IMG/VR virus record: IMGVR_UViG_3300028197_000950
Span: 1-63,393 of that record
Source: a virus
Lineage: Duplodnaviria; Caudoviricetes
Direction: 5' to 3' (one strand)
Length of the DNA stretch: 63,393 nt
The position numbers and the translations under genes are program-made. Shown here one piece after another: positions 5,797 to 62,240 of this stretch; the first letter of the stretch is position 1; the number at the start of each line of letters is the position of its first letter. The notes under the pieces were generated by a model, which saw only the letters and a list, made by a program, of their open reading frames with translations, searched no databases and was not told the DNA's origin.

Positions 5797-6007
5797 AGAG
5801 TATAGAAAAATATATTCTTGGTGTTTAAAACACGGAATAAAAATATACCCTGTAGCTACTGCTAAAGGAGAAAAAAATAAGAACTGTTATATAGAAGTAA
5901 GTGTAAATGGTAAAACAACGTTATCGCCTAAGCATTATGGTGTTAGTGAATTATGGCCTAAAATATTTGAGTTATATAAGTTTTATTATGACAAACGTAC
6001 AAACTAA
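5756..6007 (+). CDS. Hypothetical protein
   Basis: ORF in operon; its stop lies inside a class A motif. Confidence 0.6.
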   Translation: MIKTVNWKPPPWSKEYRKIYSWCLKHGIKIYPVATAKGEKNKNCYIEVSVNGKTTLSPKHYGVSELWPKIFELYKFYYDKRTN

Positions 6008-16700: not shown

Positions 16701-19700
16701 TATCTGTAGTTATTTCTTGAATTTGCTTGTTATTATCTTCTATTTGATTTTTTATTCTAGCATTAGTGTTTGGCCCTAATTTTTTTGCTTCTACTTCTAG
16801 CTTTTCATTAGCCTCTAATAATTGAGCAACTTCCATTTGAGCTTTACCATTTATGTTTGGGTCTATTTTATTAAACCTACTAAATGCTTTATTCATTTCA
16901 AAAGCATCTTCATCAAACTGCTCTTGAGTATATATCTCGCCATTAACCTCTTGTCCTATTTGCTCTTTTATTTGTGTTAAAGCTACTGATAGATCTTCTG
17001 GAGATCTTAAAGTATTAGCAAGTTCTTCCATGTTTTTTTCAAACTGCTTTCTTTCAGCAAAAGAATTTTCAGCTTCGTAATCGCTTAATATTTGTTCACT
17101 ATTTATCATAGCTTGAAAACTACCACCTGCATTACCTGATAAAAAAGAAACACCAGCCATATGTTTCATTTCTTTTTTAAACTCACTTGAAGTGTAAGCA
17201 GGTAATTCAAAACTCAATTGATTTCCTGTTCCTTTGTTAAACATCTCAGTAATAAAGTAATCCGCGCCTGTTTGAATAGTTTCATCTAAAAGTTCATCTA
17301 TACCAGATCCAGTTACTTTACCAAACTTAGATAAAGCTTTAGCGCTTAAATCTCCTATTTTCTTGTTAACAGCTATTTGAATATCTTTTGCAGTAACATT
17401 ACCTGTCAAGTTCTTCATTACAGAATTAGTTACTCTACCTACTACTTTTTCAGTTATTTTAATATTACCTTTCATTATACCTGCAGTAACATAAGACAAA
17501 GCACCTTGCACAGTTGCTTTTGCTAAAGCATATCCTTGCCTAGAAGCTGGCGACCATATTTCATCAAATCTTTTCTTAGCTTCTGACCTGCTTAGTTCAG
17601 GGTGATCAGCTATAAATTCATTTTCTACTCTAACAGCATCAGCTTGTTCAGCGGCTAGAGTTCCAAAGAAATAACCGCCAGCTAAACCTGTTAATGGAGC
17701 ACCTATGACAGCACCGTACATTTGAGCAAAAGAATTTATAGTTCCACCAACAAGGCTTTGAGCAAATTCTTGACTGAACTTTTCATCATTACCACTTAGT
17801 TGTAGTTGATCTTTTATCGCTTTAATATTACTATCTATACTTGCATTTTCAAAAGCAAATCTCTGTTTGTAAGACTTGTACTGTCTATCATTTATACCAA
17901 AAGCTTTTTTAATGAAATCAGGAGATCCACTTGAATATATCTCATGTCCAAGATAGTTTATACCTCTAGCAAATAATTGAAAAGCTTGAACTCTACCTAC
18001 ACTTGTCTCCGCAACTTGACCCACTACAGTATTATATAACTCTCTTATATAACTTCCTTGTGCTTCATATTTTTCAGACATTTTTTCTAAGCGACCACTA
18101 AGCATTAAATTTGAAGCTGTATATTCTCCTTCTAAAGCTGTTAAAAAATCATTATCAGCAAGTAAACCATCAAACTCATCTTTTAACTTAGTAAAACCAC
18201 CAATTCCGGCATTGTACTCCTCTGTTAAAGATTCTATATTTGGTATTTTATCATCATAAAATTCTTTGTATTTAGAGGATATACTTTTTTCTTTTTCTAA
18301 GTTTTTATTATAAGTCTTTATAGAGTCTTTTTGATCTGACATGAAACCTTTTTCCCACTTTACATACTCTTTAGTTAATTGCTTTGCTAAATCTGGGTTA
18401 TTAGCTATCTCTTTCTTTAATTGATCTACCTTTTTACTTTGAACATTAGAACCATTGTCTATTTCTTCTTTAAGAATTTTGTTATCTTTTTCTATTAATC
18501 TTATTTCTTCATTTGATTTTATAAACTGTTTTCTTAATAAAGTTTTTTGTTTTGTAATATCTTCTGAAATCTTAGAAGTATCTAGTATTATTTTTGTTCT
18601 TTGTTGGATATTAGACTTTTGTTCGTTTATATTTCCTTTTATGAGATTAATTGTTTTCTTTTTTTCTTTTATTTCCTTGCTGTTATCAGCCTTAGCTCCA
18701 GGAGCAGTGCTGTTTGATTTTTTGTATTCACTTATGTTTTTATCTATAAAGTTTGTAATACCTTCAATGTCTTCTACTTTGTTTCCTCTTGCACCAAAAT
18801 CAGCCTTATAAGAAAGACCTTTTCTTTCCATTAATTTATTAAAGTCATCTGTTTCATAAATTACTTCTCCAAAAGAATTTCTTTTTGGCATCTGATCGGC
18901 AGATATACCATTAGCTTCTAAAGTTTTTCTATAATCTACACTACCGTCATCTTTAAATACAGGGTTTTTATAAACATAAACGTCACTACCATCTCTAATA
19001 GCGCCAATACCATTATTTATATACTTTTCATTAATATTATCTCTTACAGCATCAGATTCTAGATTTTCAAACTCTCTTATATTTTTTCCTAGTTTCTTTT
19101 TTATACCAAATATTCCTGTCTGGCCATAGTTTTTCTCTGTTTTAATTTCATAGCCATTATCAGTATTTTTAAAATAACCACCTTTACCAGTCCAGTCCGT
19201 AGGTTTTGGCTTTTCTTGTTTTTCTTCTATGGAACTTAACATATTGTTATTACGATATGCTTGAACAAGTTTTGATTGTTTATTATTTTTGTTTTCTTTA
19301 AGCTCTTCTACCCTTTCTGGAGTTGTCTCAGGGTTGTTTAATTCTTGATCAATTACATTTATCTCATTTATAATTTCTGAAGGATTAGCAGGTATAAGTG
19401 AGCTTTCCGCGGTAACAACTAATTCTGGTAAAGTTTCATCTTTAGGATCTCTTATAGTAACTTGATCTGTAGTTACAACATCATCTTTTTTACCAAACAA
19501 TTCTTCTTCTTGCTCAAAAGTTAGGTATATTGGAGTATCTCCTTGAATTTCCTTGGCTGTATTAAAGTTGAAAAAGCCATTTTTTTTATCTTGCTTGTAG
19601 TAAGCTATATAATAATTTCCTTTAGAAGTTTCAACTGTAGATTCTTTATCTTCACCTGGCCTGTTTATTCTTTTTTTAGTTTCTGGCTCAGTATAATTAT

Positions 19701-20226
19701 AGTTTATTTTCTTTAATGAAACTAAGTTACCTGATCTTCTATCTGTATCTTCTTCTAGCCTAGTTAAAGGCTCAGATTGATTTTTTAATTTATCCGCGTC
19801 TTCAGCTATGTTAGATAAATCTACGTTTTTTCTATTAAATGAGTTTTGTATTTTAGTTTTTTCTTCATCATTTAAACTAGTTAAATCATAAGTTTCTATA
19901 ACATCGTATTTTCCTTCTGGTATATTTTCAGAGTTTTTTGGTACTTTGATTTTTCCCTTAGACTTTTTTTCTTCTTTAATATCTTTTTTACCTAAGTTTT
20001 CAGGATCATTTTCATTTTTTTGAGAGTCCAAAGAAGTATCTTCCGAGCTGGATTCCGTACTGTCTTGACTTTCCGCCGCTACAGGTGCAGCTTTCTCCGC
20101 AACGACTTTTGGCTTTTCCACCTCTGCAGGTTTATTGTCAATATCCCACTGGTTAAGTAGTTCTAAAGCTTCTGCTTTTTTTACTCCTTTATCTTTTAAA
20201 GATTGTACGTATTCTTTTTTAGTCAT
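10729..20226 (-). CDS. Giant (3165 aa) polyvalent, probably virion-ejected protein with zincin, PD-(D/E)XK and HAD-like domains
   Basis: HESLH followed by AEE; GFAYE...SDF...VEVK; VFDFDDTL...VLTAR...K...YFADD; last gene of the tail/ejection module. Confidence 0.75.
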   Translation of the reverse strand: MTKKEYVQSLKDKGVKKAEALELLNQWDIDNKPAEVEKPKVVAEKAAPVAAESQDSTESSSEDTSLDSQKNENDPENLGKKDIKEEKKSKGKIKVPKNSENIPEGKYDVIETYDLTSLNDEEKTKIQNSFNRKNVDLSNIAEDADKLKNQSEPLTRLEEDTDRRSGNLVSLKKINYNYTEPETKKRINRPGEDKESTVETSKGNYYIAYYKQDKKNGFFNFNTAKEIQGDTPIYLTFEQEEELFGKKDDVVTTDQVTIRDPKDETLPELVVTAESSLIPANPSEIINEINVIDQELNNPETTPERVEELKENKNNKQSKLVQAYRNNNMLSSIEEKQEKPKPTDWTGKGGYFKNTDNGYEIKTEKNYGQTGIFGIKKKLGKNIREFENLESDAVRDNINEKYINNGIGAIRDGSDVYVYKNPVFKDDGSVDYRKTLEANGISADQMPKRNSFGEVIYETDDFNKLMERKGLSYKADFGARGNKVEDIEGITNFIDKNISEYKKSNSTAPGAKADNSKEIKEKKKTINLIKGNINEQKSNIQQRTKIILDTSKISEDITKQKTLLRKQFIKSNEEIRLIEKDNKILKEEIDNGSNVQSKKVDQLKKEIANNPDLAKQLTKEYVKWEKGFMSDQKDSIKTYNKNLEKEKSISSKYKEFYDDKIPNIESLTEEYNAGIGGFTKLKDEFDGLLADNDFLTALEGEYTASNLMLSGRLEKMSEKYEAQGSYIRELYNTVVGQVAETSVGRVQAFQLFARGINYLGHEIYSSGSPDFIKKAFGINDRQYKSYKQRFAFENASIDSNIKAIKDQLQLSGNDEKFSQEFAQSLVGGTINSFAQMYGAVIGAPLTGLAGGYFFGTLAAEQADAVRVENEFIADHPELSRSEAKKRFDEIWSPASRQGYALAKATVQGALSYVTAGIMKGNIKITEKVVGRVTNSVMKNLTGNVTAKDIQIAVNKKIGDLSAKALSKFGKVTGSGIDELLDETIQTGADYFITEMFNKGTGNQLSFELPAYTSSEFKKEMKHMAGVSFLSGNAGGSFQAMINSEQILSDYEAENSFAERKQFEKNMEELANTLRSPEDLSVALTQIKEQIGQEVNGEIYTQEQFDEDAFEMNKAFSRFNKIDPNINGKAQMEVAQLLEANEKLEVEAKKLGPNTNARIKNQIEDNNKQIQEITTDSNNEISKELTEQEQLDFTDKQLKIVSLQKIKNLAKDQDISKEDADNLLNESKVEVFDDENVDEIAKKYNLNKEDLLDPEGVYLKDKGIILMSKTATKGVLEHESLHNFLDIALSDPKNKNVVFGIAEALKKQMAEVDPETARKIERQLDKYRSDENYTDADVAEEILTYYTQLKKRGEFKKGTTVGGEIQAGVRRLFQGLGMEIEINENNVMEVLDDYIRNTGRGKLTRSQRKLAKGKVKFSDIIKKSGDLIASENDTKVIPINKQSETTTEDIKSRDTKMVAAKPISVDTKSMSNSFDQNITEDLKTNDDFKESEAALDAFDAIENNSNFNSYINQLITRDGNLQSLSPSVKEEVNRKIKENLQIRTLKNFKPELDGNRRSLFSFIYGKASENGMGGIAQKALLDVKKEYATRPDSNARSIDKPTSEGQAFDIEDKSAEQDIINRIDGGEASAAPKSQFRRNLIVGDQKGLNNEQVEDFKKVSENVSNKLPDANAKNFRTKLDQLAGTELKSWVKDNILKGQDYKTFIKDNYNNIRDLDIKYLIDLDKGLMKQGKPRMFTKPNRRLTSQADIRKYRDSGRAYVENESQGVMLYDILNPGAGATVDFFTKEKPSTVSNRKGKLAESLGRQMFKDALPEIRNKKGESDQTKAMSAKKTQKDPRLLFAKKLDGLDLDKNQEKTFVKRVGQIVDNNPGITLQEAINLEYNKIGTNKGFAYENVIIERLKALKIKGFNVSGQAGGNKKGISDFAATIFDNALNVEVKLAVAQYGDVGLRFRNGLIDFNNNVKKKNYSFKERIRKELFEKADKALKAYRKRAGELGADLNVYDKTGKLPADIYIQLGEGLDAEGVADLKPKYSAIKEKYPDGIKGEGLQKAITQIAEFDITPVREIYENKVPPTSYIQLQGSGLFFMGKNPLGLPLPELTGNVDLTLRVNKGKSSVNKDGVMMTTVNLRVLPSKLRNIPKSDYTLDSASSVSSLMKTEAVKMLEAKVPAKESNIKELSNEVVKFSKTETNEDIINYASTVDEALKLANSLDQPVKKIRVFDFDDTLATTKSDVLFTAPDGTEGKLNAEQFATQGAQLLEQGYEFDFSEFNKVTKGKPGPLLDIAKKIQDARGTQDVFVLTARNPAAQVAIKEFLDSQGLDIPLENITGLGDSTGAAKAKWMVNKAAEGYNDFYFADDAYQNVKAVRDVMSVIDVKSKVQQARIKESKKLSDEFNDLLEETTGVDAFKEYSAAKAKTIGASKGNFKFFIPYSAEDFLGLVYPTLSKGSKGDAQMAWYKTNLIDKYTKAQENLSTSRLNLMNDFKQLKKSLNIPANLRKKNSSGFTNEQAVRVHLFTSMGYEVPGLSKRDLKQLNDTVENDATLKEFSEQILQITKGDGYSKPDANWLVGTITTDLINLINTEKRSKYLSEWQESIDTIYSKENLNKLEAIYGTKYVDALTNMLTRMKTGKNRLTSGSKIENQILDYVNGSIGTIMFFNTRSAVLQTISSINFVNWSFNNPYQAGKAFANQKQYWSDFKELMNSDYLLDRRNGLKLNISESEIADAAATSKNKAKAAINYLLQKGFLPTQYADSFAIASGGATFYRNRIKDLVRQGKTETEAKEQALIEFRQVAEESQQSSDPSRISQQQSSNVGRLILAFANTPMQYARIQKRAIQDLVNGRGDAKSHVSRIVYYGFVQNVIFNALQQAVFALGFGDDDDEKEEAKNKKYLNVANGMLDSLLRGLGIGGAAVSVAKNFLMDIYERSGRDRPEYVDSVWEVTRFSPPIYSKLSKLKQAGWQFDSKKRRELIFEKGFSLDNPAYEAAAKVVSATTNVPLDRVMYKIKNIEGALDEDNEIWQRVAMMGGWPKWQLESPKTAADLTPEQKAEVKAKSKIDNYKKAKGSKDYDTIKKLTSDQQVKMLKSLGFGEYTIKNAKTEKAKIDLIIAKNSKKKNIVDKKAIEEYKYKKLNKAEQVRKLDSLGLSKDEIKALKLEADRVEKLVELMK

Positions 20227-23295: not shown

Positions 23296-25077
23296 TTAAT
23301 ATGATGACGTTACAAAATTAGTAGCTGAAGACCATAGTTCTTTTGGACCACCTAGTTGAGTAGTTTCGTCTGTTTCAATTTTTACTGTAGCAAAATATCC
23401 TTTAATTCCGCTCATCTTATTGCCAAATATAATTTCATCAGCTGTAGGCGTTGAATTATTTACTAGATTAGCAACGTATCTATTTTCTTTCCTATCAAAC
23501 CCGGCTCTAAATGGTTGGCCTGTATTTATATCTGTGTATAAACCTTCATTGTAACTTTTTATTGATAATATTTTATCATTATTCTGTACATAGGAAGATG
23601 TGCCGTCTGGATTAACGTCTTGTCCAGTAAAACCAGATATATAAGAAACTACTTCCCATCCATTGCTACCTTCGTAAGATATAGTATTAAAGTTTTTCAT
23701 TACATCTGGCTGCGGGTTAAAAACAAAAGTCACATTAGATGGACTTCTTGAGTTATAAAAAACTCCTCTTTCATTTAGTCCTGGCGTGTCAAAATATTGT
23801 TGATAAACTTGAGAACTATTAATTGATGTGTTCCCTTTACCTATAGTATAGAATTTATTTAATATACTAAATAATGCTACGGGTTTATAAGTAAAAAAGC
23901 TAACCCAACCGTTTATTTCCTCATCAAAAGCTAATGTCTTATATGATTCTCTTGCTGTAGAAGCTTGGCTAGAGTTTTTCTGAAGTGATAAGACATAGTT
24001 TTTAGCATGTATATCAAAACCTCCTTTTATCTGGCCTTTTGTTGGAAAAACAAATGTTAAAGTACCACTTAAATCATTTTCAAAAACAGTAGAATAATAT
24101 ATAATTGTATTACCGCCACTAATTTCAATATTAGTTATATACCCTTGAGTCTGTATATTATTAGCTCCTTGTATATACATGCCAGTTGTTATATTGTAAC
24201 CACTTTCTATATTGTTTACAGTTACCAACGTATCACCAGTTGTTCCTTCTGAAACCCAAGTTGCAGTAAAAGTATTTAAAGTTTGTTCATTTGATATTTC
24301 AGCTAACTCATCTCTAAAATAATCACGCATACCATACATACTTATTTCAGTTAAACCATCATTAGATAATCTCATTATAGCATTACGGCTTTTATCAGAA
24401 AAATACTTCCTATAGTTATATATTGCAAATGATTCTGGATTTTTACTTATTCCGTACTCTCCTTTATAAGGAACAAACTGACCTATCACCTTTTGACCTG
24501 CTTGTGTTTGTGTACCACTTTCGGTTGTATATATAGTATCTTTATCTATTAATGCTCTATGTATTCTATTCTCTTGAAATACTATTAAGTTAGTTTCTTC
24601 AGCATGTGTAAGTTGTATTGATCCGTGAACAGGATCTAAAGATCTAGTTATAGCATCTCCAACAGAAAATACATTAGTTTGATTTATACCGGTTCTAGAA
24701 TTATAAATACCTGAGTAAATCAAAGTACTTATTCTTCTTTGTTGCTGTGGATATTCTTCGTCTAAATAAGCTCTAACACCTTGGTCAGTAAAAGTATCAT
24801 TATAACCACCTCTAATTCTAGACTCTTCAATATACCAATTACTGTTTCCAGCTACTGGTGTGGTAGCGGAGGTTGGGTTCAGAGGAACAAATAATAGCCC
24901 ATTAAGGAGTGCTGTGTTAATTGCAATGTCTGTAAGTGGCGCTATTGCCGGCCAAGAAAAAACTGGGTAAGAATTGTTTTGAACATCGCCAGCTTGCTGT
25001 TCCCATCGAACTGCTAATGTTCTTCTCACTATGTAAGTGTTGAAAAAATCTACTTCTATTACTGCTCCGGTTGACAT
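23296..25077 (-). CDS. Tail structural/stabilisation protein (beta-rich)
   Basis: GEYGISKNPESF, YFSD...IMRLS.DGLTEIS and TLAFDE..NGWVSF resemble podoviral nozzle/stabilisation proteins. Confidence 0.65.
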   Translation of the reverse strand: MSTGAVIEVDFFNTYIVRRTLAVRWEQQAGDVQNNSYPVFSWPAIAPLTDIAINTALLNGLLFVPLNPTSATTPVAGNSNWYIEESRIRGGYNDTFTDQGVRAYLDEEYPQQQRRISTLIYSGIYNSRTGINQTNVFSVGDAITRSLDPVHGSIQLTHAEETNLIVFQENRIHRALIDKDTIYTTESGTQTQAGQKVIGQFVPYKGEYGISKNPESFAIYNYRKYFSDKSRNAIMRLSNDGLTEISMYGMRDYFRDELAEISNEQTLNTFTATWVSEGTTGDTLVTVNNIESGYNITTGMYIQGANNIQTQGYITNIEISGGNTIIYYSTVFENDLSGTLTFVFPTKGQIKGGFDIHAKNYVLSLQKNSSQASTARESYKTLAFDEEINGWVSFFTYKPVALFSILNKFYTIGKGNTSINSSQVYQQYFDTPGLNERGVFYNSRSPSNVTFVFNPQPDVMKNFNTISYEGSNGWEVVSYISGFTGQDVNPDGTSSYVQNNDKILSIKSYNEGLYTDINTGQPFRAGFDRKENRYVANLVNNSTPTADEIIFGNKMSGIKGYFATVKIETDETTQLGGPKELWSSATNFVTSSY

Positions 25078-25097: not shown

Positions 25098-28000
25098 TTA
25101 ATTACCCCTTATTTGGCTATTAACCACACTTGAACCGCTAGCTGGAGAAATACCCTCTTCAACAGGTTCTAATGGAACGTCTGGAGCAACTGGTAATACG
25201 CTTGCTCCAGCGGCTATTCTACTATTTAATTCAGTTACTAACCCAGAAGTTGATGTTTCCCAATATATTTCAAGTTTAGAAACTCTTGGAACAATTTCTG
25301 CTATAGAAAACCCATAATCTTCATTAAGACTACCAGGCAAGCCAAATACCTCTTGATTAGCACCAGATACTATTATAGCAGGTGGATTGTTTCCACTTTG
25401 CTGTAAACCTACAACTTCTGAATCAATAGAATCATCACTAAGTCCTAAGTCTAAAACTTTTCCATAGCCTTGAATACTAGCTGTAGAAGCTCCAAAATAA
25501 AAATTACCAGGATAAACACTACCTCTACTAAAGAAAGTTGGAGTTCCAGTTAGGTATTGAAAATCTGAACCAACTCTAATATTTAGCCTAGTATCACTAG
25601 TGCCAAATTGGTTTTGCTCAGGTGCTACCGCTCCTAAATCAGCAGGTATCTTATTTACGTTGTCAGCTAATAAAGAAGTTATATACGTAGTAAGATAGTT
25701 ATTTATACCACCTGCGTTTATTCTAGCGCCACTAGCAATAGTTTGAAAACCTCCTAAATAAGCGTTGTAATATTCTTCTGCTAATTGCTTTACTACTATT
25801 TTATAACTATACCAACCTAATTTGTTTTCTTGAGTGTAAACAGTTAAGTCAGATGAGTTGGGTATACTTAAGGTTTTGTTTACTGTTATAGTCTTGTTTG
25901 TAGAGTCAATAGAATTTACAGCAGCAGTAAATAAGTTTGCTGTGCTAGATTGAGGTCCAGTAACTATATCTCCTACAGATATTTGATCAAAATCATTATT
26001 AACAGGTTGTACATTTAGTTGAGTAGCGTTAACTGTAGAATTTATTTTTCCACTAAAAGAAGAGCCGTTACCAACAACACATAGCTTATCTCCAATTTCA
26101 TAACCACTTCCACCATCAGTAACTACACCTTGCGCAACCAGTAGTGGAGCACTGAAAGCTCCAGAATTTAGTACCGTTATTTGAAGTTTAGCACCTGATC
26201 CGTTGCCAGAATATCCTGTTTGATAAACTAAATCTAAAGGAGCTGTTCCACCACCATTAACAAGAGTAAATCCAGTACCCTCTTCTAAAGTATTATAAGG
26301 CCCAGGTTCTCCAGTGTTAACCCAATAAACAGTGTCTGGAAACCCTTTTAAAGACGGTAAGGATCCGTCACTAATAGATATCACATTACTACTAATAACC
26401 TCAGCATTTGTCTTAAATTTATAACTAACAGCTTTGTATATACCTGGATATCCTTGAGGATTATCCTTTAAAGACGGTATACCTAAACCAGAAAAAAGCA
26501 CTTTTATAGAATTACCTTTCCATAATTCTGGTCTTATTGAATCAGTTCCAGACCTACCTGTAGAATATGGACTATAAAAAGTAGAACCATCAAAAGTAGT
26601 ATTTCCACCATCTTGGGACTGTTGGAATTGTATTTCATTTGATAATATAACATCAGACTGTCTTCCGTATCTATCAGCTAAAACTATACCTACTTGATAT
26701 GTTCTGTTTTGTTTTACTGTATGGATAGGATATGCCATTGAACAATTAGAGCTGTAATTACTAGTGCCTATAATGTTAAAATTAGATGAACTTCTAGCTT
26801 CGTATTTTTCACTAACAGATATTGAGTAATCTAAGCCAGTAGGTGGAGAATGTTTATCTATAAAATTGCCATATATTACTCTATTGCCTGAAATAGATTG
26901 AGACTTTGCTCTAATAGGCACTTTATCAAAAACTCTTTCTACTTCTCTTGAAGGCAGTGTTCTAAAAGGGTTTTTTGATTGATAATCATATATAAGATTT
27001 CTAGATGCACCTTGTGTAGGGTCAAAATCAGAAACTTTAAATTCTTCTAAAACTTGAATTGAAAGAGCATTAGATTCTCTATATATTAATTGTACTTCAG
27101 TTACTTTTAATGCGGTTTCTAATTGAGCTTGTGTATACGGTAATGGAATTGTTATTCTTACTTGATCTACTTCGTTCTCAAAAAAATCTAATATTGTGCT
27201 ATTAGAAATTGCATCTATTACACCTTTGCTAGGGTCAGCCCTAATATCAGTTCCTAAATCATATCTTGTAGGAATATAACCTTTATTTCTAGGTATAAAA
27301 GCTGGTTGAGTAAATGGAGATATTAAAGAGAACTCCCCGTCATCAAATTTAAATCTATAAGCAAATCTAACAAATTTATCAGTTAAAAACTCATCATCAC
27401 CAGGCCAACTACTTATGTAATTAGGATTAGGCCATGCTAATGTAACTTTAGTGCCCTCATCAAATGCGAAATCGGGGCCAGATATAGCTCTTGGAGGAGA
27501 AATGCCTAATAATTTATAGTTTGGATTTACACCAGGGACTGCTGGAACGTCTGTTACACTAGTTATTATTGTTTCAAAACCATTAAATGTATCTGTTATT
27601 TTCATCTTTGTGAAAACTCCATCAGGATTTGATAGCCCCGAACCATTTGGAAAGGCATCACCGGCAATTATTGAAATTTCATTTGCAGTTGCTGGATTTG
27701 GATATGCAGCACATCGCGAAAAAACACTAGGTGCAAGATATTCGTCTGTTACATTTTTTGAAGAAGTATCTACAAAACAAAGTGACGTTTTTCCAATTAA
27801 ATTTATTGCACTTGTTAAACGAAAACTATAAGGAGATACATAACTTACTGTTCTTATATAAACGTCTGGATAACCGACAACTGCCATACCAGGTATTAAG
27901 TTTTCAGTACTATCATTAGTTGTAATTGTTAAAACAGTACCACTAGAAGTTATATTATCTATACATACTTCATTCCATAAAATTGGAGCTTGATAAGGAT

Positions 28001-28565
28001 AGTATTTAGCAACTGATATTTGATCCTCTGTAGTATAGTATCCAGGAGAGAAAGGGTTAACAGTTGGGGTATCTTGGTTTACATTTATTTTTCTAGGTTG
28101 ATTCCTATCGTCTGTCCAGAATAAAAGTTTTTCTAATAAATCTATGCCCGTTACAGGGTGTGTTTTAGAGAAATTTAAAAAACTACCTTCAACAAGTATT
28201 TTAAATCTAAGCAGTGGATCTGTTTGTTTATTATCAAACTTTAATATATAACAAGAAGCACCATAAGGAGCTACGTTATCTAATGTGCTTACAGACGTAT
28301 CAACATAGTTTGTTGCAATAAAATAAGCTGATTCTGAACTTTCATCTATTGTATGGCCAATTATTTCTAAATTTGGAATAGATCCTAAGCCCCAATCACC
28401 TAAAAATGTATTTCCTAATATATTTTCTAAAGCGCCAACGTCTTCTCCCTCTGACCTACTTACCTGAACATTTTCCGCGTCTCTATACTCACCTTTAGAA
28501 AGCAGTCTGTCATCAAGATCTTTATTCATCTTGGATTTTATAAAAGTATTCCTTGCGTTAGCCAT
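25098..28565 (-). CDS. Large tail stabilisation/muzzle-like protein with inserted modules
   Basis: KMNKDLDDRL...GEYRDAEN, LLFWTDDRNQPRKIN, VRFAYRFKF and GNRVIYGNF. Confidence 0.7.
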   Translation of the reverse strand: MANARNTFIKSKMNKDLDDRLLSKGEYRDAENVQVSRSEGEDVGALENILGNTFLGDWGLGSIPNLEIIGHTIDESSESAYFIATNYVDTSVSTLDNVAPYGASCYILKFDNKQTDPLLRFKILVEGSFLNFSKTHPVTGIDLLEKLLFWTDDRNQPRKINVNQDTPTVNPFSPGYYTTEDQISVAKYYPYQAPILWNEVCIDNITSSGTVLTITTNDSTENLIPGMAVVGYPDVYIRTVSYVSPYSFRLTSAINLIGKTSLCFVDTSSKNVTDEYLAPSVFSRCAAYPNPATANEISIIAGDAFPNGSGLSNPDGVFTKMKITDTFNGFETIITSVTDVPAVPGVNPNYKLLGISPPRAISGPDFAFDEGTKVTLAWPNPNYISSWPGDDEFLTDKFVRFAYRFKFDDGEFSLISPFTQPAFIPRNKGYIPTRYDLGTDIRADPSKGVIDAISNSTILDFFENEVDQVRITIPLPYTQAQLETALKVTEVQLIYRESNALSIQVLEEFKVSDFDPTQGASRNLIYDYQSKNPFRTLPSREVERVFDKVPIRAKSQSISGNRVIYGNFIDKHSPPTGLDYSISVSEKYEARSSSNFNIIGTSNYSSNCSMAYPIHTVKQNRTYQVGIVLADRYGRQSDVILSNEIQFQQSQDGGNTTFDGSTFYSPYSTGRSGTDSIRPELWKGNSIKVLFSGLGIPSLKDNPQGYPGIYKAVSYKFKTNAEVISSNVISISDGSLPSLKGFPDTVYWVNTGEPGPYNTLEEGTGFTLVNGGGTAPLDLVYQTGYSGNGSGAKLQITVLNSGAFSAPLLVAQGVVTDGGSGYEIGDKLCVVGNGSSFSGKINSTVNATQLNVQPVNNDFDQISVGDIVTGPQSSTANLFTAAVNSIDSTNKTITVNKTLSIPNSSDLTVYTQENKLGWYSYKIVVKQLAEEYYNAYLGGFQTIASGARINAGGINNYLTTYITSLLADNVNKIPADLGAVAPEQNQFGTSDTRLNIRVGSDFQYLTGTPTFFSRGSVYPGNFYFGASTASIQGYGKVLDLGLSDDSIDSEVVGLQQSGNNPPAIIVSGANQEVFGLPGSLNEDYGFSIAEIVPRVSKLEIYWETSTSGLVTELNSRIAAGASVLPVAPDVPLEPVEEGISPASGSSVVNSQIRGN

Positions 28566-56361: not shown

Positions 56362-56987
56362 TATTTAAAGCCTTTCATGTGCTTCATAATAGAATGTCTA
56401 CCTCTAGCATCGTGCTTAGCATCTTTCTTTAAAGCATGTGCATGATCAAAGTCATTCTTAGCATTAGCCATCTTTCCATGTGCAGCTTCATATCTTCCAT
56501 CAAACTTTAATTTCTTCTCGTGAGAGTAATCATCCATCGATGCTTCTTTATCTTGGTATGCGTTCATAGAAGACCCGTGCTTTTTGCCATACATAGAAGG
56601 TCCAGCTATATCAGCCATCATATCCATTTGGCCTGCAGCAAATTCTCTACCTATTATAGCAGCTTCTTTGTTTTTACCAGATTGTCCTTTTCCGTACTTT
56701 CTTTTTTTAGCTCTTTTAGCTCTTCTTCTTTCTTGACCCTTAGTTGCAGATGCTCCATGCATTGACATTCCATCGGATGTAGCTTTAGTTTCTGCTGGTG
56801 TTGCTGATTTAGCAGCTTTTCCAGCTTCTGCAGCGGCTTGTGCAGCTTTACCTGCGCCTTTTTTACCCATCTCTCCTCCAGCTTTTTCTCCTTTTTTCTT
56901 ACGTTTTTTTAATTTAATTTTAGATCCAAGTTTTTTTAGTGAATCTTTAAACTTTCCTGAAGCTCCGTCTTCTTTATTTTTCATCAT
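56361..56987 (-). CDS. Lys/Ala/His-rich protein with GAS-like motifs; first late gene
   Basis: ORF downstream of a class B motif. Confidence 0.6.
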   Translation of the reverse strand: MMKNKEDGASGKFKDSLKKLGSKIKLKKRKKKGEKAGGEMGKKGAGKAAQAAAEAGKAAKSATPAETKATSDGMSMHGASATKGQERRRAKRAKKRKYGKGQSGKNKEAAIIGREFAAGQMDMMADIAGPSMYGKKHGSSMNAYQDKEASMDDYSHEKKLKFDGRYEAAHGKMANAKNDFDHAHALKKDAKHDARGRHSIMKHMKGFK

Positions 56988-57034
56988 GATTTTATTTTTT
57001 TTAATATTTTTAAGTAATTACCTTAATATAAGAG

Positions 57035-57059
57035 ATTACACAGTAAACTTAATATTTAC
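57035..57059 (-). promoter_or_regulatory. Class B promoter motif GTAAAT-N14-GTAAT heading the late arm
   Basis: 48 nt upstream of the ATG at 56987. Confidence 0.6.
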
Positions 57060-57080
57060 ATATATAGTGATTAATAAAAA

Positions 57081-57127
57081 GGTGACAAATGCCCCTTATT
57101 CTATAGCTCTAAGGGGTAAATGTCACC
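57081..57127. repeat. Inverted repeat in the divergence zone (candidate origin/operator)
   Basis: GGTGACA-AATGCCCCTTA...TAAGGGGTAAA-TGTCACC. Confidence 0.7.
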
Positions 57128-57319
57128 CTATTTAGATATATATAAGTAAAGTACTGCAATATCAAATTTTTATTTTGTATTTTTTAGCAAAGTCAGTTTT
57201 ATATTTCGGGGTTCCCATCGTTTTCACGATTATGTTTTGTATATATGCGAATAATCGATACGATATTGCGGCAGAGTTTTAGGCTTCAGCGTTTCACATT
57301 GTTATATATACTAACTAGT

Positions 57320-57350
57320 ACATACTATATACGACGACATGTGGATAATA
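57320..57350 (+). promoter_or_regulatory. Class A motif (variant ACATACTATATACGA-N9-GATAATA)
   Basis: First copy of the early arm. Confidence 0.6.
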
Positions 57351-57398
57351 ATAATGTAACTACGAAAGATACAAACTAAACTAATAAATAAATAACAT

Positions 57399-57494
57399 AT
57401 GACTAATATAATAAATAAACTTACATCACTCGAAATAGTATTACCAATAATCTTTATCACTTATGAATTAATGTTCTTAATATATATAATGTAA
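57399..57494 (+). CDS. 31-aa single-TM micropeptide, not in ORF track
   Basis: MTNIINKLTSLEIVLPIIFITYELMFLIYIM after an A-rich leader. Confidence 0.45.
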   Translation: MTNIINKLTSLEIVLPIIFITYELMFLIYIM

Positions 57495-57559
57495 GATCAT
57501 TAGAGATAATGTGATACACTTAACAACTAATAATAATAATTAAATAAATATACACTTAT

Positions 57560-57590
57560 ACAAACTAAATACGACACTAACAAGATAATA
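57560..57590 (+). promoter_or_regulatory. Class A motif
   Basis: Exact consensus. Confidence 0.75.
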
Positions 57591-57621
57591 ATAATAACTA
57601 AACTAAATAAATAATAACAAT

Positions 57622-57858
57622 ATGAAAACTAATAACTTAACAACAAAAAGATTTGTAATAAGAAAATCTTTACTCGGTACAAATACAGTAATAACATTTA
57701 CTAACAAAAAAGATATAACTTTTACTTATGATCATGATGAGATTTACTCAACATTTCAACAAAAGTTTGAAGAAATGCAATGTTTTCAACAGTACAAATC
57801 TTATACAAATAGTAATACTGTTCCAAAATTCTGTAGAGAATTAAGTACTCAGTCTTAA
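57622..57858 (+). CDS. Early hypothetical protein
   Basis: Follows a class A motif. Confidence 0.65.
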   Translation: MKTNNLTTKRFVIRKSLLGTNTVITFTNKKDITFTYDHDEIYSTFQQKFEEMQCFQQYKSYTNSNTVPKFCRELSTQS

Positions 57859-57926
57859 AACTAAAAGTCGAAGTTGATAGTAATACTTTAACGACTATAA
57901 ATAACACGAACATATTACTCGACACA

Positions 57927-57972
57927 TAACTGAAATGGTTGTAAGTGAGATTCGATTTCTCACTCAGTTACA
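57927..57972 (+). ncRNA. tRNA-like acceptor-stem/T-arm element
   Basis: TAACTGA/TCAGTTA stem; GTGAGA-TTCGATT-TCTCAC arm; AATGGT linker; no anticodon arm. Confidence 0.5.
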
Positions 57973-58000
57973 AACTAATTACGACAATCGTAAGATAATA
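57970..58000 (+). promoter_or_regulatory. Class A motif (one mismatch)
   Basis: ACAAACTAATTACGA-N9-GATAATA. Confidence 0.72.
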
Positions 58001-58009
58001 ATAATAACT

Positions 58010-58129
58010 ATGTATAATGAAATAAAAATACTACAAGAGTTTTCAAAGAAAGTCTTTGATATGACTCCAATAACCATCAATCAATTATTGATGATAAAAA
58101 AAGAATTTAATAACTATAAAAATAAATAA
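58010..58129 (+). CDS. Small early protein (39 aa; start revised from 57935)
   Basis: ATG 9 nt after a class A motif. Confidence 0.5.
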   Translation: MYNEIKILQEFSKKVFDMTPITINQLLMIKKEFNNYKNK

Positions 58130-58130
58130 T

Positions 58131-58334
58131 ATGTCTTATAATATAAACTCACCTTCAAACTGGTCATGGTCAAAAGCATTTGACGAAATGGACAAATATG
58201 TTCATCAAACAGAAATGACTCAACAATCTATAAATCACGTAATCGGTTATCCCGGTGAAGCTAATGGTGTCTTTATGTCACTAGATAAATCACAACAAGA
58301 TGATGTTTACGATATACTAAATCAAATACTATGA
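58131..58334 (+). CDS. Early hypothetical protein
   Basis: ORF in operon. Confidence 0.6.
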   Translation: MSYNINSPSNWSWSKAFDEMDKYVHQTEMTQQSINHVIGYPGEANGVFMSLDKSQQDDVYDILNQIL

Positions 58335-58402
58335 ATAAAGAACAGAAACTATTTATAGCAATATTAATTTGCTCAATACTAATAATAATAACAGATGTCG
58401 TT

Positions 58403-58433
58403 ACAAACTAAATACGACAAATAATAGATAATA
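58403..58433 (+). promoter_or_regulatory. Class A motif
   Basis: Exact consensus. Confidence 0.75.
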
Positions 58434-58438
58434 ATAAT

Positions 58439-58657
58439 ATGAATATAAAACAACATAAGCAAAAGCTTAACAAAGAATACAATCAAGCGATTGTCGATAA
58501 AGTACTAAACTCAATGTGGTCAAAGCTCGGTAACGAACTAGATAATGTAATGATCAGTGAAGGTCCTTACTCTGAAACTAATAATGAAATGTTTGACGAT
58601 CAAGATTGTTACGCAGGTATTATACTAAATACTATGAAACTACAATGTGATGAATAA
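58439..58657 (+). CDS. Early hypothetical protein
   Basis: Between a class A motif and the hammerhead. Confidence 0.6.
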   Translation: MNIKQHKQKLNKEYNQAIVDKVLNSMWSKLGNELDNVMISEGPYSETNNEMFDDQDCYAGIILNTMKLQCDE

Positions 58658-58707
58658 GTTTAACTGATGAGAGTTTAATACTCGAAACTACGTAAGTAGT
58701 CTTAAAC
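58658..58707 (+). ncRNA. Type I hammerhead ribozyme
   Basis: GTTTAA-CTGATGA-GAGT(TTAAT)ACTC-GAAA-CTAC(GTAA)GTAG-TC-TTAAAC: all core nucleotides, three stems, GUC cleavage triplet. Confidence 0.93.
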
Positions 58708-58725
58708 AATAATAACTAACTAAAT

Positions 58726-58962
58726 ATGAAAAAAATAATAATAAGTATTGCTGCACTCGGCGCAATGTCATTCACAAGTAATCAATTATATTACTCAACT
58801 CAACTAGTCTATGCTATGAATAACATAGAAGATATGAAAGAGTGGATTATACAAGATGTTGAAAACAATAAAATTGATAGTGTATATGCAGAGTTTTACT
58901 TTGAAACACTAGATGAAACTCACGGTTTTATTAATGACTTTTTCGAGCACGAATGCAAATAA
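58726..58962 (+). CDS. Small protein with an N-terminal signal peptide
   Basis: MKKIIISIAALGAMSFT followed by an acidic body. Confidence 0.65.
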   Translation: MKKIIISIAALGAMSFTSNQLYYSTQLVYAMNNIEDMKEWIIQDVENNKIDSVYAEFYFETLDETHGFINDFFEHECK

Positions 58963-58992
58963 CAAACTAAATACGAACACTAATAGATAATA
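58962..58992 (+). promoter_or_regulatory. Class A motif
   Basis: Exact consensus. Confidence 0.75.
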
Positions 58993-59014
58993 ATAATATA
59001 ATAAATAAATAAAT

Positions 59015-59188
59015 ATGAATAAAAAAACAATAACATCAATCACAGGATTACTAATGATAGTAGTTCTAGCAATGGCAACATCATGCTCAACTACACAATA
59101 TGCTAATAAAACATACGCTAAAAAGAAGTTTAACGGTAAGATTACTGCTCGTGCTCATCACTACAATGCTTGTCCAGCTTACCAATAA
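59015..59188 (+). CDS. Small putative lipoprotein (57 aa), not in ORF track
   Basis: MNKK, hydrophobic stretch, lipobox-like ATSC. Confidence 0.65.
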   Translation: MNKKTITSITGLLMIVVLAMATSCSTTQYANKTYAKKKFNGKITARAHHYNACPAYQ

Positions 59189-59197
59189 AATATAATT

Positions 59198-59368
59198 ATG
59201 ACTGAACAGCAAAAAATAGAAGCAATCGCTCAAGATATACAAGATGGTATCTACGGTTGGACACAGAAATGTGGAACAGAGTGGCAGAAGTGGACATACT
59301 CATTAATGCAAGCTAAAAAAATATATGAAGGTGATTTAATAATAAGTTTAAGTATAGAAAATGAATAG
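59198..59368 (+). CDS. Small early protein (56 aa), not in ORF track
   Basis: MTEQQKIEAIAQDIQDGIYGW...; fills the gap. Confidence 0.55.
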   Translation: MTEQQKIEAIAQDIQDGIYGWTQKCGTEWQKWTYSLMQAKKIYEGDLIISLSIENE

Positions 59369-59552
59369 AGATAGAGAATGGGATTTTATGGAAGAACATA
59401 GAGAGCTAATGAAAACAGAAGATGAAAGATCTTTACTAGCAACTTTTGGAATAGTAGTTAGAGAACTAGCTATTAAGTATCCTAATAACCAAGAATTAGG
59501 TGCAGAAGTAAGAGAATTAATACAAGATTACAAACTAAATACGAATAGCTAA
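59361..59552 (+). CDS. Early hypothetical protein with YPNNQELGAEVR motif
   Basis: ORF in operon. Confidence 0.6.
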   Translation: MNRDREWDFMEEHRELMKTEDERSLLATFGIVVRELAIKYPNNQELGAEVRELIQDYKLNTNS

Positions 59553-59560
59553 AGATAATA
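59530..59560 (+). promoter_or_regulatory. Class A motif
   Basis: Exact consensus. Confidence 0.75.
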
Positions 59561-59565
59561 ACAAT

Positions 59566-59709
59566 ATGAAAACAATTAAATTTTACCCAAGCGACAGGTC
59601 TCTAATGAGATTAGATGGCAAATTACTAAAAGGTTACACTATAGATAGTATACCAGACAATATAAACTCATGGTTTAACTATAAAGGTCTAACATTTGTA
59701 ACAAGTTAA
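59566..59709 (+). CDS. Small early protein (47 aa), not in ORF track
   Basis: ATG 5 nt after a class A motif. Confidence 0.55.
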   Translation: MKTIKFYPSDRSLMRLDGKLLKGYTIDSIPDNINSWFNYKGLTFVTS

Positions 59710-59760
59710 CGGACATGAGTGTGATGTTGTAACTCGATCCAAAAACATACGAGCGTTAAC

Positions 59761-59801
59761 TCGCGATAGCTCATACTTAACCAGTATGGGCTTTTCGTGG
59801 T
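59761..59801 (+). promoter_or_regulatory. Conserved start-abutting RNA hairpin, copy 1
   Basis: TCGCGA-T-AGCTCATACT(TAACC)AGTATGGGCT-TT-TCGTGG-T-ATG. Confidence 0.65.
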
Positions 59802-60239
59802 ATGAAATGTAACCACAATATTCCACAAGCAAGATTAGATCTTGGCTATAAAGTATGTATCGATTGTAGTACAGTAGAAAAACTCGGCTGTATCGACACT
59901 ATAAATCATAAAACTGGCAATACTATTCAAGTAATGTCACATGAAGATGCAGAAAAAGCCAATAAGTTAACAAAACGAGCAGGTTTTGGTATACTAAGAT
60001 CTATGGCTAATGGTTCAAGTCAACGTAAAGCTAATATGATCACTGGATGCTCAACTACTTATGTAGGTAACGACGTTATGTTCGAGCAAATAGGTAAAAC
60101 TTACATGGATTATTTAGAAGTTGATGAAGAAATTGCCCAGCGCTATCTCGATCGAGCGCTAAACAATGCAGATATATCTGAAAACCAATATAATAAGATA
60201 AAAATGCTTTGTAACAGACTAAATACGATCACTATTTGA
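59802..60239 (+). CDS. Protein with an N-terminal DksA/TraR-like zinc-finger segment
   Basis: C...IPQARLDLGYKVCIDCS. Confidence 0.6.
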   Translation: MKCNHNIPQARLDLGYKVCIDCSTVEKLGCIDTINHKTGNTIQVMSHEDAEKANKLTKRAGFGILRSMANGSSQRKANMITGCSTTYVGNDVMFEQIGKTYMDYLEVDEEIAQRYLDRALNNADISENQYNKIKMLCNRLNTITI

Positions 60240-60244
60240 TAATA
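60214..60244 (+). promoter_or_regulatory. Class A motif (one mismatch)
   Basis: ACAGACTAAATACGA-N9-GATAATA. Confidence 0.7.
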
Positions 60245-60258
60245 TATTAAACAAATAT

Positions 60259-60405
60259 ATGAATAAAATAACAAAACAGCTCGAAAACTTGTACTCTTGG
60301 ACAAAATTCTATCAAGATCGAGCAGATAAAGAAGCAATTAGAAAATGTCAAACTGAAATCGCGCAGTTGAAACAAGCGTTTAATCAATTGAAATCTAAAA
60401 AATGA
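60259..60405 (+). CDS. Small early protein (48 aa), not in ORF track
   Basis: Follows a class A motif; ATGA-coupled to 60402. Confidence 0.55.
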   Translation: MNKITKQLENLYSWTKFYQDRADKEAIRKCQTEIAQLKQAFNQLKSKK

Positions 60406-60686
60406 AAGATACTAATGCAATAGATAAAGCTATTAGACAAAAATGTGAAAAAGAAATATGGTTTATAGTTGATAGTTTCTTAAATGAAATAGAAACTAAA
60501 TTAAGAGGTGAATATAATAACTCTAGTTTTTACTATTTAAATGCTCCTAATTCAAAAGTTAAATTCACTGTAATGGGTATGGAACAACTTAAAACTGTAT
60601 TAAACAATATGTTAATAGAAGGTCACATAGAATCTATGTTGAGTATAAAATCACGAGAATTAATCAAAAAACTTGAATTATTATGA
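60402..60686 (+). CDS. Early hypothetical protein
   Basis: ORF in operon. Confidence 0.6.
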   Translation: MKDTNAIDKAIRQKCEKEIWFIVDSFLNEIETKLRGEYNNSSFYYLNAPNSKVKFTVMGMEQLKTVLNNMLIEGHIESMLSIKSRELIKKLELL

Positions 60687-61960: not shown

Positions 61961-62024
61961 CCACGTTAGCTCGTACTTTCCCTTCGGCGTAAGCCCACAG
62001 GTGACGGTACGGGCTTTTCGTGGT
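61961..62024 (+). promoter_or_regulatory. Conserved start-abutting RNA hairpin, copy 2
   Basis: CCACG-TT-AGCTCGTACT...GGC(GTAA)GCC...GGTACGGGCT-TTT-CGTGG-T-ATG. Confidence 0.65.
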
Positions 62025-62240
62025 ATGAATAATATAGGAATAATGCAAGCGTTTATGTTACTAGGTGACTTAGACACTAAACAAGAGGACAAGCTAAGCA
62101 ATAAAGCTATAGCTTATAAAGAAAGAATAGTTTTCTCTACAATGAGAGCTAGTATACCTGGTTGGCAACCGCCAAGTAACTGGAATAGTTTAACTAATAA
62201 AGAAAAACTAAAAAGACTTGATAAACTACAATCAGTATAA
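62025..62240 (+). CDS. Early hypothetical protein (start revised from GTG 62001)
   Basis: ATG in the same hairpin context as 59802. Confidence 0.6.
   Translation: MNNIGIMQAFMLLGDLDTKQEDKLSNKAIAYKERIVFSTMRASIPGWQPPSNWNSLTNKEKLKRLDKLQSV

Follow-up and report, generated by a model that had tools for sequence, protein, structure and literature searches.

A 50-nt segment on the plus strand of the window (i.e. the whole stretch of DNA analysed, a complete virus record of 63,393 nt), at positions 58658-58707, is a real type I hammerhead ribozyme and very probably active. Phage elements of this kind have been known since 2011, and the present one is unexceptional among them; we think it likely that it functions as a hammerhead within a polycistronic early transcript of small ORFs, where it would cut the RNA and act as a start mimic or insulator for the downstream gene.

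Reading the sequence directly, the segment opens with the 5' strand of stem I (GUUUAA, 58658-58663), which would form six base pairs with the 3' strand at the other end of the motif (UUAAAC, 58702-58707), the latter constituting the first six nucleotides of the predicted 3' product. Between these strands lie the catalytic core CUGAUGA, corresponding to C3 U4 G5 A6 U7 G8 A9 (58664-58670), the stem II hairpin GAGU-UUAAU-ACUC (58671-58683; four base pairs between 58671-58674 and 58680-58683, with a 5-nt U-N-A-N-U loop), the core residues G12 A13 A14 as GAA (58684-58686) and the stem III hairpin ACUAC-GUAA-GUAGU (58687-58700; 58687-58691 paired with 58696-58700, that is A15.1-U16.1 and four further pairs below a GUAA loop). 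They are followed by C17 at 58701, and the hammerhead consensus position places the scissile bond at 58701/58702. The earlier note had described this motif, and all consensus core positions are indeed found in it: C3 U4 G5 A6 N7 G8 A9, G12 A13 A14 and an H17 that is not G, together with three helices of 6, 4 and 5 bp that carry the closing pairs G10.1-C11.1 and A15.1-U16.1. Stem I is open at both ends of the motif and stems II and III are closed by loops, an order that defines the type I topology; the assignment to this type, likewise made earlier, is upheld by the presence of the whole consensus core and by covariation in all three stems.

This covariation was assessed with a covariance model (R1) built on seven 50-nt copies, which returned 53 matches at E<=1 in 39 sources (the window and 38 loci, 455,858 bases), one of them in the window. 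In the resulting alignment, which is fitted to the model, standard pairs occupy 98.1% of 648 cells, against 69.6% after shuffling and 28-38% when the partners are slid by 1-3 columns. Changes on both sides are seen in 12 of the 15 pairs, including all six pairs of stem I, and there are 174 double-change cells as compared to 42.7 +/- 5.1 in shuffles. The pairs G10.1-C11.1 and A15.1-U16.1 are each kept in 44 of 45 informative rows, and stem III covaries across the class. The first search pattern fixed one stem II sequence; countering this caveat, additional copies in the same loci vary freely. At the level of the aligned sequences all three stems are backed by covariation.

Gene neighbourhood and the predicted transcript

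The genome encodes a portal protein, a large terminase, a GroEL-like protein and crAss-type tail-muzzle domains, along with plus-strand replication genes for a Toprim/DnaB-like primase-helicase, a MazG and an RNR-like protein. Comparison of the large terminase identified cultured podophages of marine Flavobacteriia as its relatives: the 87 matches include 68 Flavobacterium, 15 Cellulophaga, 2 Tenacibaculum and 1 Maribacter phages, and the best of them, at 64% identity, is to an uncultured genome. Among named genomes the nearest by this protein is MW202828.1 (64% identity), which contains no ribozyme copy, and a blastn comparison of the 3-kb neighbourhood with named phages gave no match. The crassvirus muzzle domains occur in two structural proteins, at 23296-25077 (-) and 25098-28565 (-) of the window (PF25729, E = 2e-9; PF25731, E = 1e-12), in a genome of only 63 kb whose large terminase groups with those of Flavobacterium and Cellulophaga podophages.

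The ribozyme is situated in a block of small plus-strand ORFs at 57.3-62.3 kb, which starts at a divergent junction with the structural genes and is followed by the replication genes, a position from which it is plausible that these are early genes. Within the same block a 23-nt direct repeat, GTAYGGGCTTTTCGTGGTATGAA, occurs at 59784-59806 and 62007-62029 (+) with 96% identity between the copies, and ends on the start codon of the ORF at 59802-60239. The hammerhead lies on the coding strand between two plus-strand ORFs, and no ORF of at least 30 aa covers 58658-58725 on either strand. The upstream ORF (58439-58657, 72 aa), which belongs to no Pfam family, has homologs in L008, L032 and L038 at 82-88% identity; its TAA at 58655-58657 abuts stem I, so that the motif begins on the base after the upstream stop, just as was first stated. 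The product of the downstream ORF (58726-58962, 78 aa) has a hydrophobic N-terminus, MKKIIISIAALGAMSFTS, which makes a signal peptide plausible. Its homologs in related phages start with MNKII or MKKLI followed by a hydrophobic run, and are encoded directly behind the preceding ORF with no hammerhead in between.

The predicted cut after 58701 and the start of the next ORF at 58726 agree with the 24-nt leader anticipated in the earlier note, namely the A/U-rich stretch at 58702-58725. Stem I ends 18 nt before the downstream AUG and leaves the start codon untouched. Comparable spacing recurs in other phages that contain this ribozyme: an ATG-initiated ORF of at least 30 aa lies within 80 nt of 40 of 42 distinct copies, with a median distance of 22 nt from cut to ATG, and in a wider set the figures are 88 of 93 copies and a median of 26 nt. 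Of 35 copies for which an upstream ORF could be detected, 28 have its stop codon between -6 and +3 nt relative to stem I. Judged from these sequences, members of the subclass nearly always fill the space between the stop of the preceding gene and a leader of about 20-26 nt. Most leaders in the class are A/U-rich and devoid of a Shine-Dalgarno sequence, L021 and L022 showing AGGAGG in the same place; the genes of the present genome are also without a Shine-Dalgarno sequence.

Most of the neighboring small genes are preceded by a promoter-like repeat, ACAAACTAAATACGA-N9-GATAATA, which has ten full copies in the genome, all on the plus strand (at most two mismatches in the 15-mer). One of these is at window position 5999 and nine are in the 57.3-62.3 kb region, at 57320, 57560, 57970, 58403, 58962, 59530, 60214, 60980 and 62243 (+), and in most copies the repeat ends 13-39 nt ahead of an ATG. 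The copy at 58403-58432 (+; repeat family D1) stands just before the upstream ORF, and the next, at 58962-58991 (+), starts on the last base of the stop codon of the downstream ORF. The gene behind the ribozyme has no full repeat of its own; an eleventh match to the 15-mer, at 58715 within the leader, is a partial look-alike that does not include the GATAATA box. The leader that the ribozyme would create is 86% identical to the leader behind the repeat copy at 58962 (repeat D5). The repeat is specific to the plus strand in 14 of 16 related loci, with an extra minus-strand copy in L036 and none found in L016. From this arrangement we infer that ACAAACTAAATACGA-N9-GATAATA is a promoter and that its 58403 copy would mark the transcript start. 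The core of the repeat, AAATACGAC...TA(A/T)AG, presumably resembles T7-type promoters, and no single-subunit RNA polymerase gene was identified in the genome. A 3165-aa ORF at 10729-20226 (-) of the window was considered as a possible virion RNA polymerase acting behind the promoter-like repeats; it has neither a D[FY]DxD motif nor a Pfam family nor a PDB relative (E<=1). The sole hit of this ORF is a weak match to a PHROG polynucleotide kinase over residues 2212-2386 (E = 6e-5); were this match true, the phage would encode a kinase for 5'-OH ends beside a ribozyme that makes such ends.

On the reading that we favor, both flanking ORFs would be on one transcript, which would start from the 58403 repeat and carry the 72-aa ORF, the ribozyme and the 78-aa ORF in that order. 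The ribozyme would fold co-transcriptionally and cut itself after C58701, whereupon the message for the 72-aa protein would be left with the hairpins of stems II and III and a 2',3'-cyclic phosphate at its 3' end. Provided that the RNA cleaves, a 5'-OH end at 58702 would follow from known hammerhead chemistry, and the downstream message would begin with this end and a 24-nt unstructured A/U-rich leader. Such a leader would match those behind the promoter-like repeats in length and composition, and the ribozyme would therefore act as a mimic of transcription start, or an insulator, for the gene that lacks a repeat. Translation and decay of the downstream gene would then be uncoupled from the upstream cistron, in hosts that, going by the relatives of the phage, would be Flavobacteriia whose genes are devoid of Shine-Dalgarno sequences. 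The start-mimic component of this reading depends on the repeat being a promoter. The earlier note had further envisaged a monocistronic, possibly stabilized mRNA. The first of these terms is not supported, as a search of the plus strand from 56900 to 60500 revealed no terminator-like site and the next gene block follows immediately, on account of which the 3' product may run on; the message might conceivably be stabilized.

Parts of the early region occur in 24 public runs, all stored as contigs. In four marine metatranscriptome runs short contigs cover parts of 57.4-60.4 kb, no listed piece spanning 58658-58707, and such contigs cannot show RNA ends and hence say nothing either way on cleavage. 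Certain pieces from run X3 match the window with 0 differences (e.g. 58223-58474 and 58758-58977), and one X5 contig departs from the window at 58653 into a different gene, as in the relatives that are without the ribozyme.

Distribution among phages and competing explanations

Fourteen related contigs were gathered by means of the 145-aa protein of 59802-60239, with L033, L036 and L038 as the carriers among them; two further carriers, L008 and L016, were reached by a pattern search instead. A near-identical 50-mer is thus present in 5 of 16 related viral contigs, each of the five carrier records having one ribozyme copy in its entire length. Their cores vary solely at N7 (U or C), stem II of L036 is GAUC/GAUC and has two compensatory pair changes, and the stem III loop takes the forms GUAA, ACAA, GCGA and GCAA. 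Identity across the hammerhead is 86-98% among the carriers with L016 set aside and 54-59% for L016, and the 120-nt flanks are at a background identity of 61-69%, except where the upstream 72-aa gene is shared. In L016 (14559-14643) stem III is enlarged by about 35 nt, the remaining ribozyme being unchanged. None of the 11 other related records, six of which are at least 90% complete, has the ribozyme anywhere, and in these non-carriers homologs of the flanking genes abut or overlap the neighboring ORF. On this sequence comparison the element is conserved where present and dispensable for the lineage; likewise, any benefit for expression is not essential, because the non-carriers have the downstream gene directly behind the preceding ORF.

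Beyond these relatives, a strict pattern that combined the core, the stem II of the window and GAAAC detected 24 viral loci, with a complete hammerhead in 23 of them. A looser pattern, consisting of the core, a 4+5+4 frame for stem II in which the loop begins and ends with U, and CGAAAC, recovered at least 119 viral stretches. Examination of 80 of these loci yielded 104 matches, 96 of them distinct, and 93 of the 96 are full type I hammerheads; among the latter stem I is exactly 6 bp in 91, is preceded by A in 90 and is followed by A in all 93. Across 179 distinct copies an A stands before stem I in 99% and after it in 98% (the next base being A in 75%), the outer pair of stem I is G-C in 95%, and loop II has U1 in 100%, A3 in 88% and U5 in 96%. 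Position N7 is U in 116, C in 59, G in 3 and A in 1 of these copies, and H17 is C in 156 and A in 23. As read from these sequences, members of the subclass open with an A and the 5' strand of a 6-bp stem I; CUGAYGA comes next, then a stem II of 4 bp whose loop is U-N-A-N-U, GAAAC, a stem III that varies, H, and the returning 6-bp strand with AA behind it.

In 596 Gb of bacterial and archaeal contigs the looser pattern marked a full hammerhead in just 12 of 82 matches, and these cellular contigs can serve as a chance control because they show that the pattern by itself does not make a hammerhead. All 12 copies in the cellular contigs (loci L192, L198, L201, L206, L210, L221, L224, L231, L240 and L242) have the same 6-bp, A-flanked form and span several phyla, with assignments to a Nitrosopumilus MAG, Bacteroidota, and MAGs of Bdellovibrionales type, of Phycisphaerales and of proteobacteria; they are probably phage or prophage DNA that was binned with the MAGs.

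Forty loci contain 2-6 copies each, all on the same strand within a locus and a median of 511 nt apart. Of 98 pairs of copies from the same contig, 45 share an identical stem I, as against 5.6% between contigs, and the corresponding within-contig figures are 20 of 98 for stem II and 22 of 98 for stem III. Tandem copies with a common stem I are seen, for example, at L022 421-2232, L019 4420-7817 and L002 2536-6001. Given this within-contig identity, the processed messages of any one phage would all begin with the same 6-8 nt.

The patchy presence described above (five of the 16 related contigs, none of the 11 other whole records) could also be understood if the element were a portable junction, i.e. 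a selfish element or a recombination site of the early cassette, with incidental effects on the expression of its neighbors. Consistent with this, the almost unchanged 50-mer occupies at least three different gene junctions with unrelated flanks among the related contigs, and it is stem I in particular, and to a lesser extent stem II, that is held in common within a contig. A linker used for recombination would, however, need neither an intact core nor compensatory changes in three stems nor a fixed distance to the start codon, and we regard this explanation as unlikely; it may nevertheless coexist with an RNA processing function.

The same packing of genes admits a regulated switch, in which translation of the 78-aa ORF would be set by cleavage, or by its inhibition when ribosomes terminate at the adjacent stop. 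A terminating ribosome would cover stem I in the 28 of 35 copies where the stop abuts or overlaps it, and before cleavage stem I holds the first six nucleotides of the leader. Against such a switch, the start codon lies clear of stem I by the 18 nt noted earlier, no ligand-binding or extra conserved domain is found in the 179 class copies, and there is no strongly competing fold, the hammerhead being the minimum free energy structure or within 0.4 kcal/mol of it in contexts of 91, 161 and 241 nt. We consider a switch of this kind quite improbable.

That the motif is a chance look-alike or a dead relic with no self-cleavage appears very improbable, even though a part of the evidence taken in isolation would allow it. 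Segment 58658-58707 is the single match to the hammerhead descriptor in the whole genome, and in 1000 dinucleotide-preserving genome shuffles a match with stems of at least 6, 4 and 5 bp arose in 1, one with at least 5, 4 and 4 bp in 4 and one with at least 4, 3 and 3 bp in 76; the bare core pattern without the stems was not enriched, with 5 matches against 5.41 expected. A motif of this 1-in-1000 rarity is by itself not decisive, because it is expected to turn up occasionally when very much sequence is searched. In thermodynamic terms the structure is weak (-7.8 kcal/mol with stem I included) and its energy is unremarkable, at -8.0 kcal/mol with z = -0.62, 55 of 200 shuffles folding equally well. 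Comparison with the Rfam hammerhead models, which had been proposed as a check, gave 0 matches at the gathering thresholds over the whole window: none of RF00163, RF00008, RF02275-RF02277 and RF03152 reaches its gathering score on the element, and RF03152, the sole hammerhead family to appear locally at E<=10, scores 20 bits against a gathering score of 56.3. When run in E-value mode over the whole window, Rfam produced a single match, to an irrelevant lncRNA model (E = 0.12), and no second ribozyme class was found there. The nine other loci that contain about 20 covarying copies are also without a hammerhead match at the Rfam gathering thresholds, for which reason we attribute the shortfall to the models; four copies in L022 reach 27.7-32.8 bits with RF03152, again compared to its threshold of 56.3. 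Chance is ruled out by the conservation (86-98% amid unrelated flanks) and covariation across other viral contigs, to which may be added the fit of every core position to the consensus and the contrast between 93 of 96 complete viral matches and 12 of 82 in cellular contigs.

Cleavage followed by self-ligation, which would produce the circular or spliced RNA that has been suggested where a hammerhead lies on either side of a gene unit, is scarcely credible and was rejected for this genome: tandem copies with the same stem I in other contigs would let the 5' end of a unit re-pair with its own 3' ribozyme, and the possibility was raised in PMC3088659, yet its authors reported that no such product was detected, and with a single copy here and in each of the five carrier records there is no unit flanked by two ribozymes.

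Putative tertiary contact and a cultured carrier

Outside the core, the near-invariant positions include the A's that flank stem I and U1, A3 and U5 of loop II. We propose that the flanking A's and the U...U of loop II may form a contact that permits fast cleavage at cellular Mg2+ concentrations. In four copies from two loci, L070 and L074, a U placed 3' of the sixth stem I pair goes together with an A as the final base of loop II, and this swap from U:A to A:U may be covariation of a tertiary pair. Mutual information was used to look for a pseudoknot that would join loop II to the flanks, and gave no convincing signal apart from two pairs: the final base of loop II with the first base of the 3' flank (z = 13.7, on few variant sequences) and a weak loop2/flank pair (z = 5.4).

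A wider synthesis is possible, and we advance it tentatively and as a whole. In phages whose Bacteroidota hosts lack Shine-Dalgarno sequences, efficient translation might need a short and free A/U-rich 5' end, which the portable 50-nt hammerhead would supply to any gene that comes to lie behind another and is without a promoter; an inverted, minimal loop-loop contact, in which the U at the end of loop II pairs with an A outside a stem I of fixed 6-bp length, would give fast cleavage; and the genome-specific stem I would constitute a common 5' tag on every message that a given phage processes in this way.

A member of the same subclass occurs in a cultured phage, Flavobacterium phage vB_FspP_elemoA_7-9A, which grows on Flavobacterium sp. 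BAL314 (NC_055852.1 17286-17351, minus strand, 46.2 bits). In this genome the hammerhead is annotated as a 35-aa "hypothetical protein", gp68 (L045 5962-6069, corresponding to NC_055852.1 17275-17382), on the strand opposite to that of all its neighbors, and gp68 is probably a spurious call. The same phage has an unannotated ORF of 21 codons whose TAG stands directly before stem I. As both this phage and its host are in culture, they offer a system for studying the cut in infected cells and what it does to the gene behind it, and genome annotations could be corrected where a ribozyme sits under an ORF call. The analysis contributes the precise consensus of a common subclass that falls below the curated Rfam thresholds, its patchy, junction-hopping distribution in this phage lineage, and the occurrence of a member of the same subclass in a cultured phage. 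An uncultured marine phage is thereby shown to carry a compact hammerhead that is well supported.

Relationship to known hammerheads

The nearest curated model is RF03152 (RAGATH-1), which has in common with our element the short stems I and II, the closed stem III and the type I order; the model has in addition an upstream hairpin and linker, which are absent from the element. Ribozymes are also used as insulators in synthetic constructs, as in RiboJ, which derives from a type III hammerhead and has an added hairpin. Like RiboJ, the phage element would cut in front of a gene, strip away the upstream context and leave a standard leader, but it is natural, of type I and without the added hairpin.

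Among natural systems, Perreault et al. 2011 (PMC3088659) reported hundreds of hammerheads in bacteria and prophages, among them clusters that flank single genes, and constructs of about 2 kb from a polycistronic prophage region with clustered hammerheads that self-cleave in vitro. According to the available text of that report, long phage transcripts were proposed to be cut into gene-length mRNAs, the biological role being left open, and in a halovirus a variant hammerhead precedes a start codon by 13 nt, a 5' end having been mapped close to where it would cleave. The present element resembles these systems as a DNA-encoded hammerhead on the coding strand between phage genes. Unlike their clusters it is represented by one copy in this genome, as in the five related carrier records, and the pseudoknot stressed in that text has no covariation counterpart here.

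The loop-loop tertiary motif of natural hammerheads, as treated in the available text of Dufour et al. 2009 (PMC2632901), involves positions that match ours, namely the last base of loop II (U in 96%) and the base 3' of stem I (A in 98%). Here, however, stem I is open, the flanking A's take the place of "loop 1" and the identities are swapped, with U/A in our element and A/U in theirs. The four copies with the U:A to A:U swap are suggestive of an inverted version of the contact in PMC2632901, but their number is small.

A recent report (PMC13725137, 2026) names type I as the usual form of hammerhead in the DNA genomes of bacteria and phages, and deals with ribozymes of RNA genomes with eukaryotic hosts, which by the account of its authors, as given in the available text, do without the usual loop-loop contacts and differ from the present element in these respects. 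In one RNA virus described there a type I hammerhead spans a 66-nt intergenic region and cleaves 7 nt before the next start codon, and its 5' end was verified in vivo and tied to translation of the ORF that follows.
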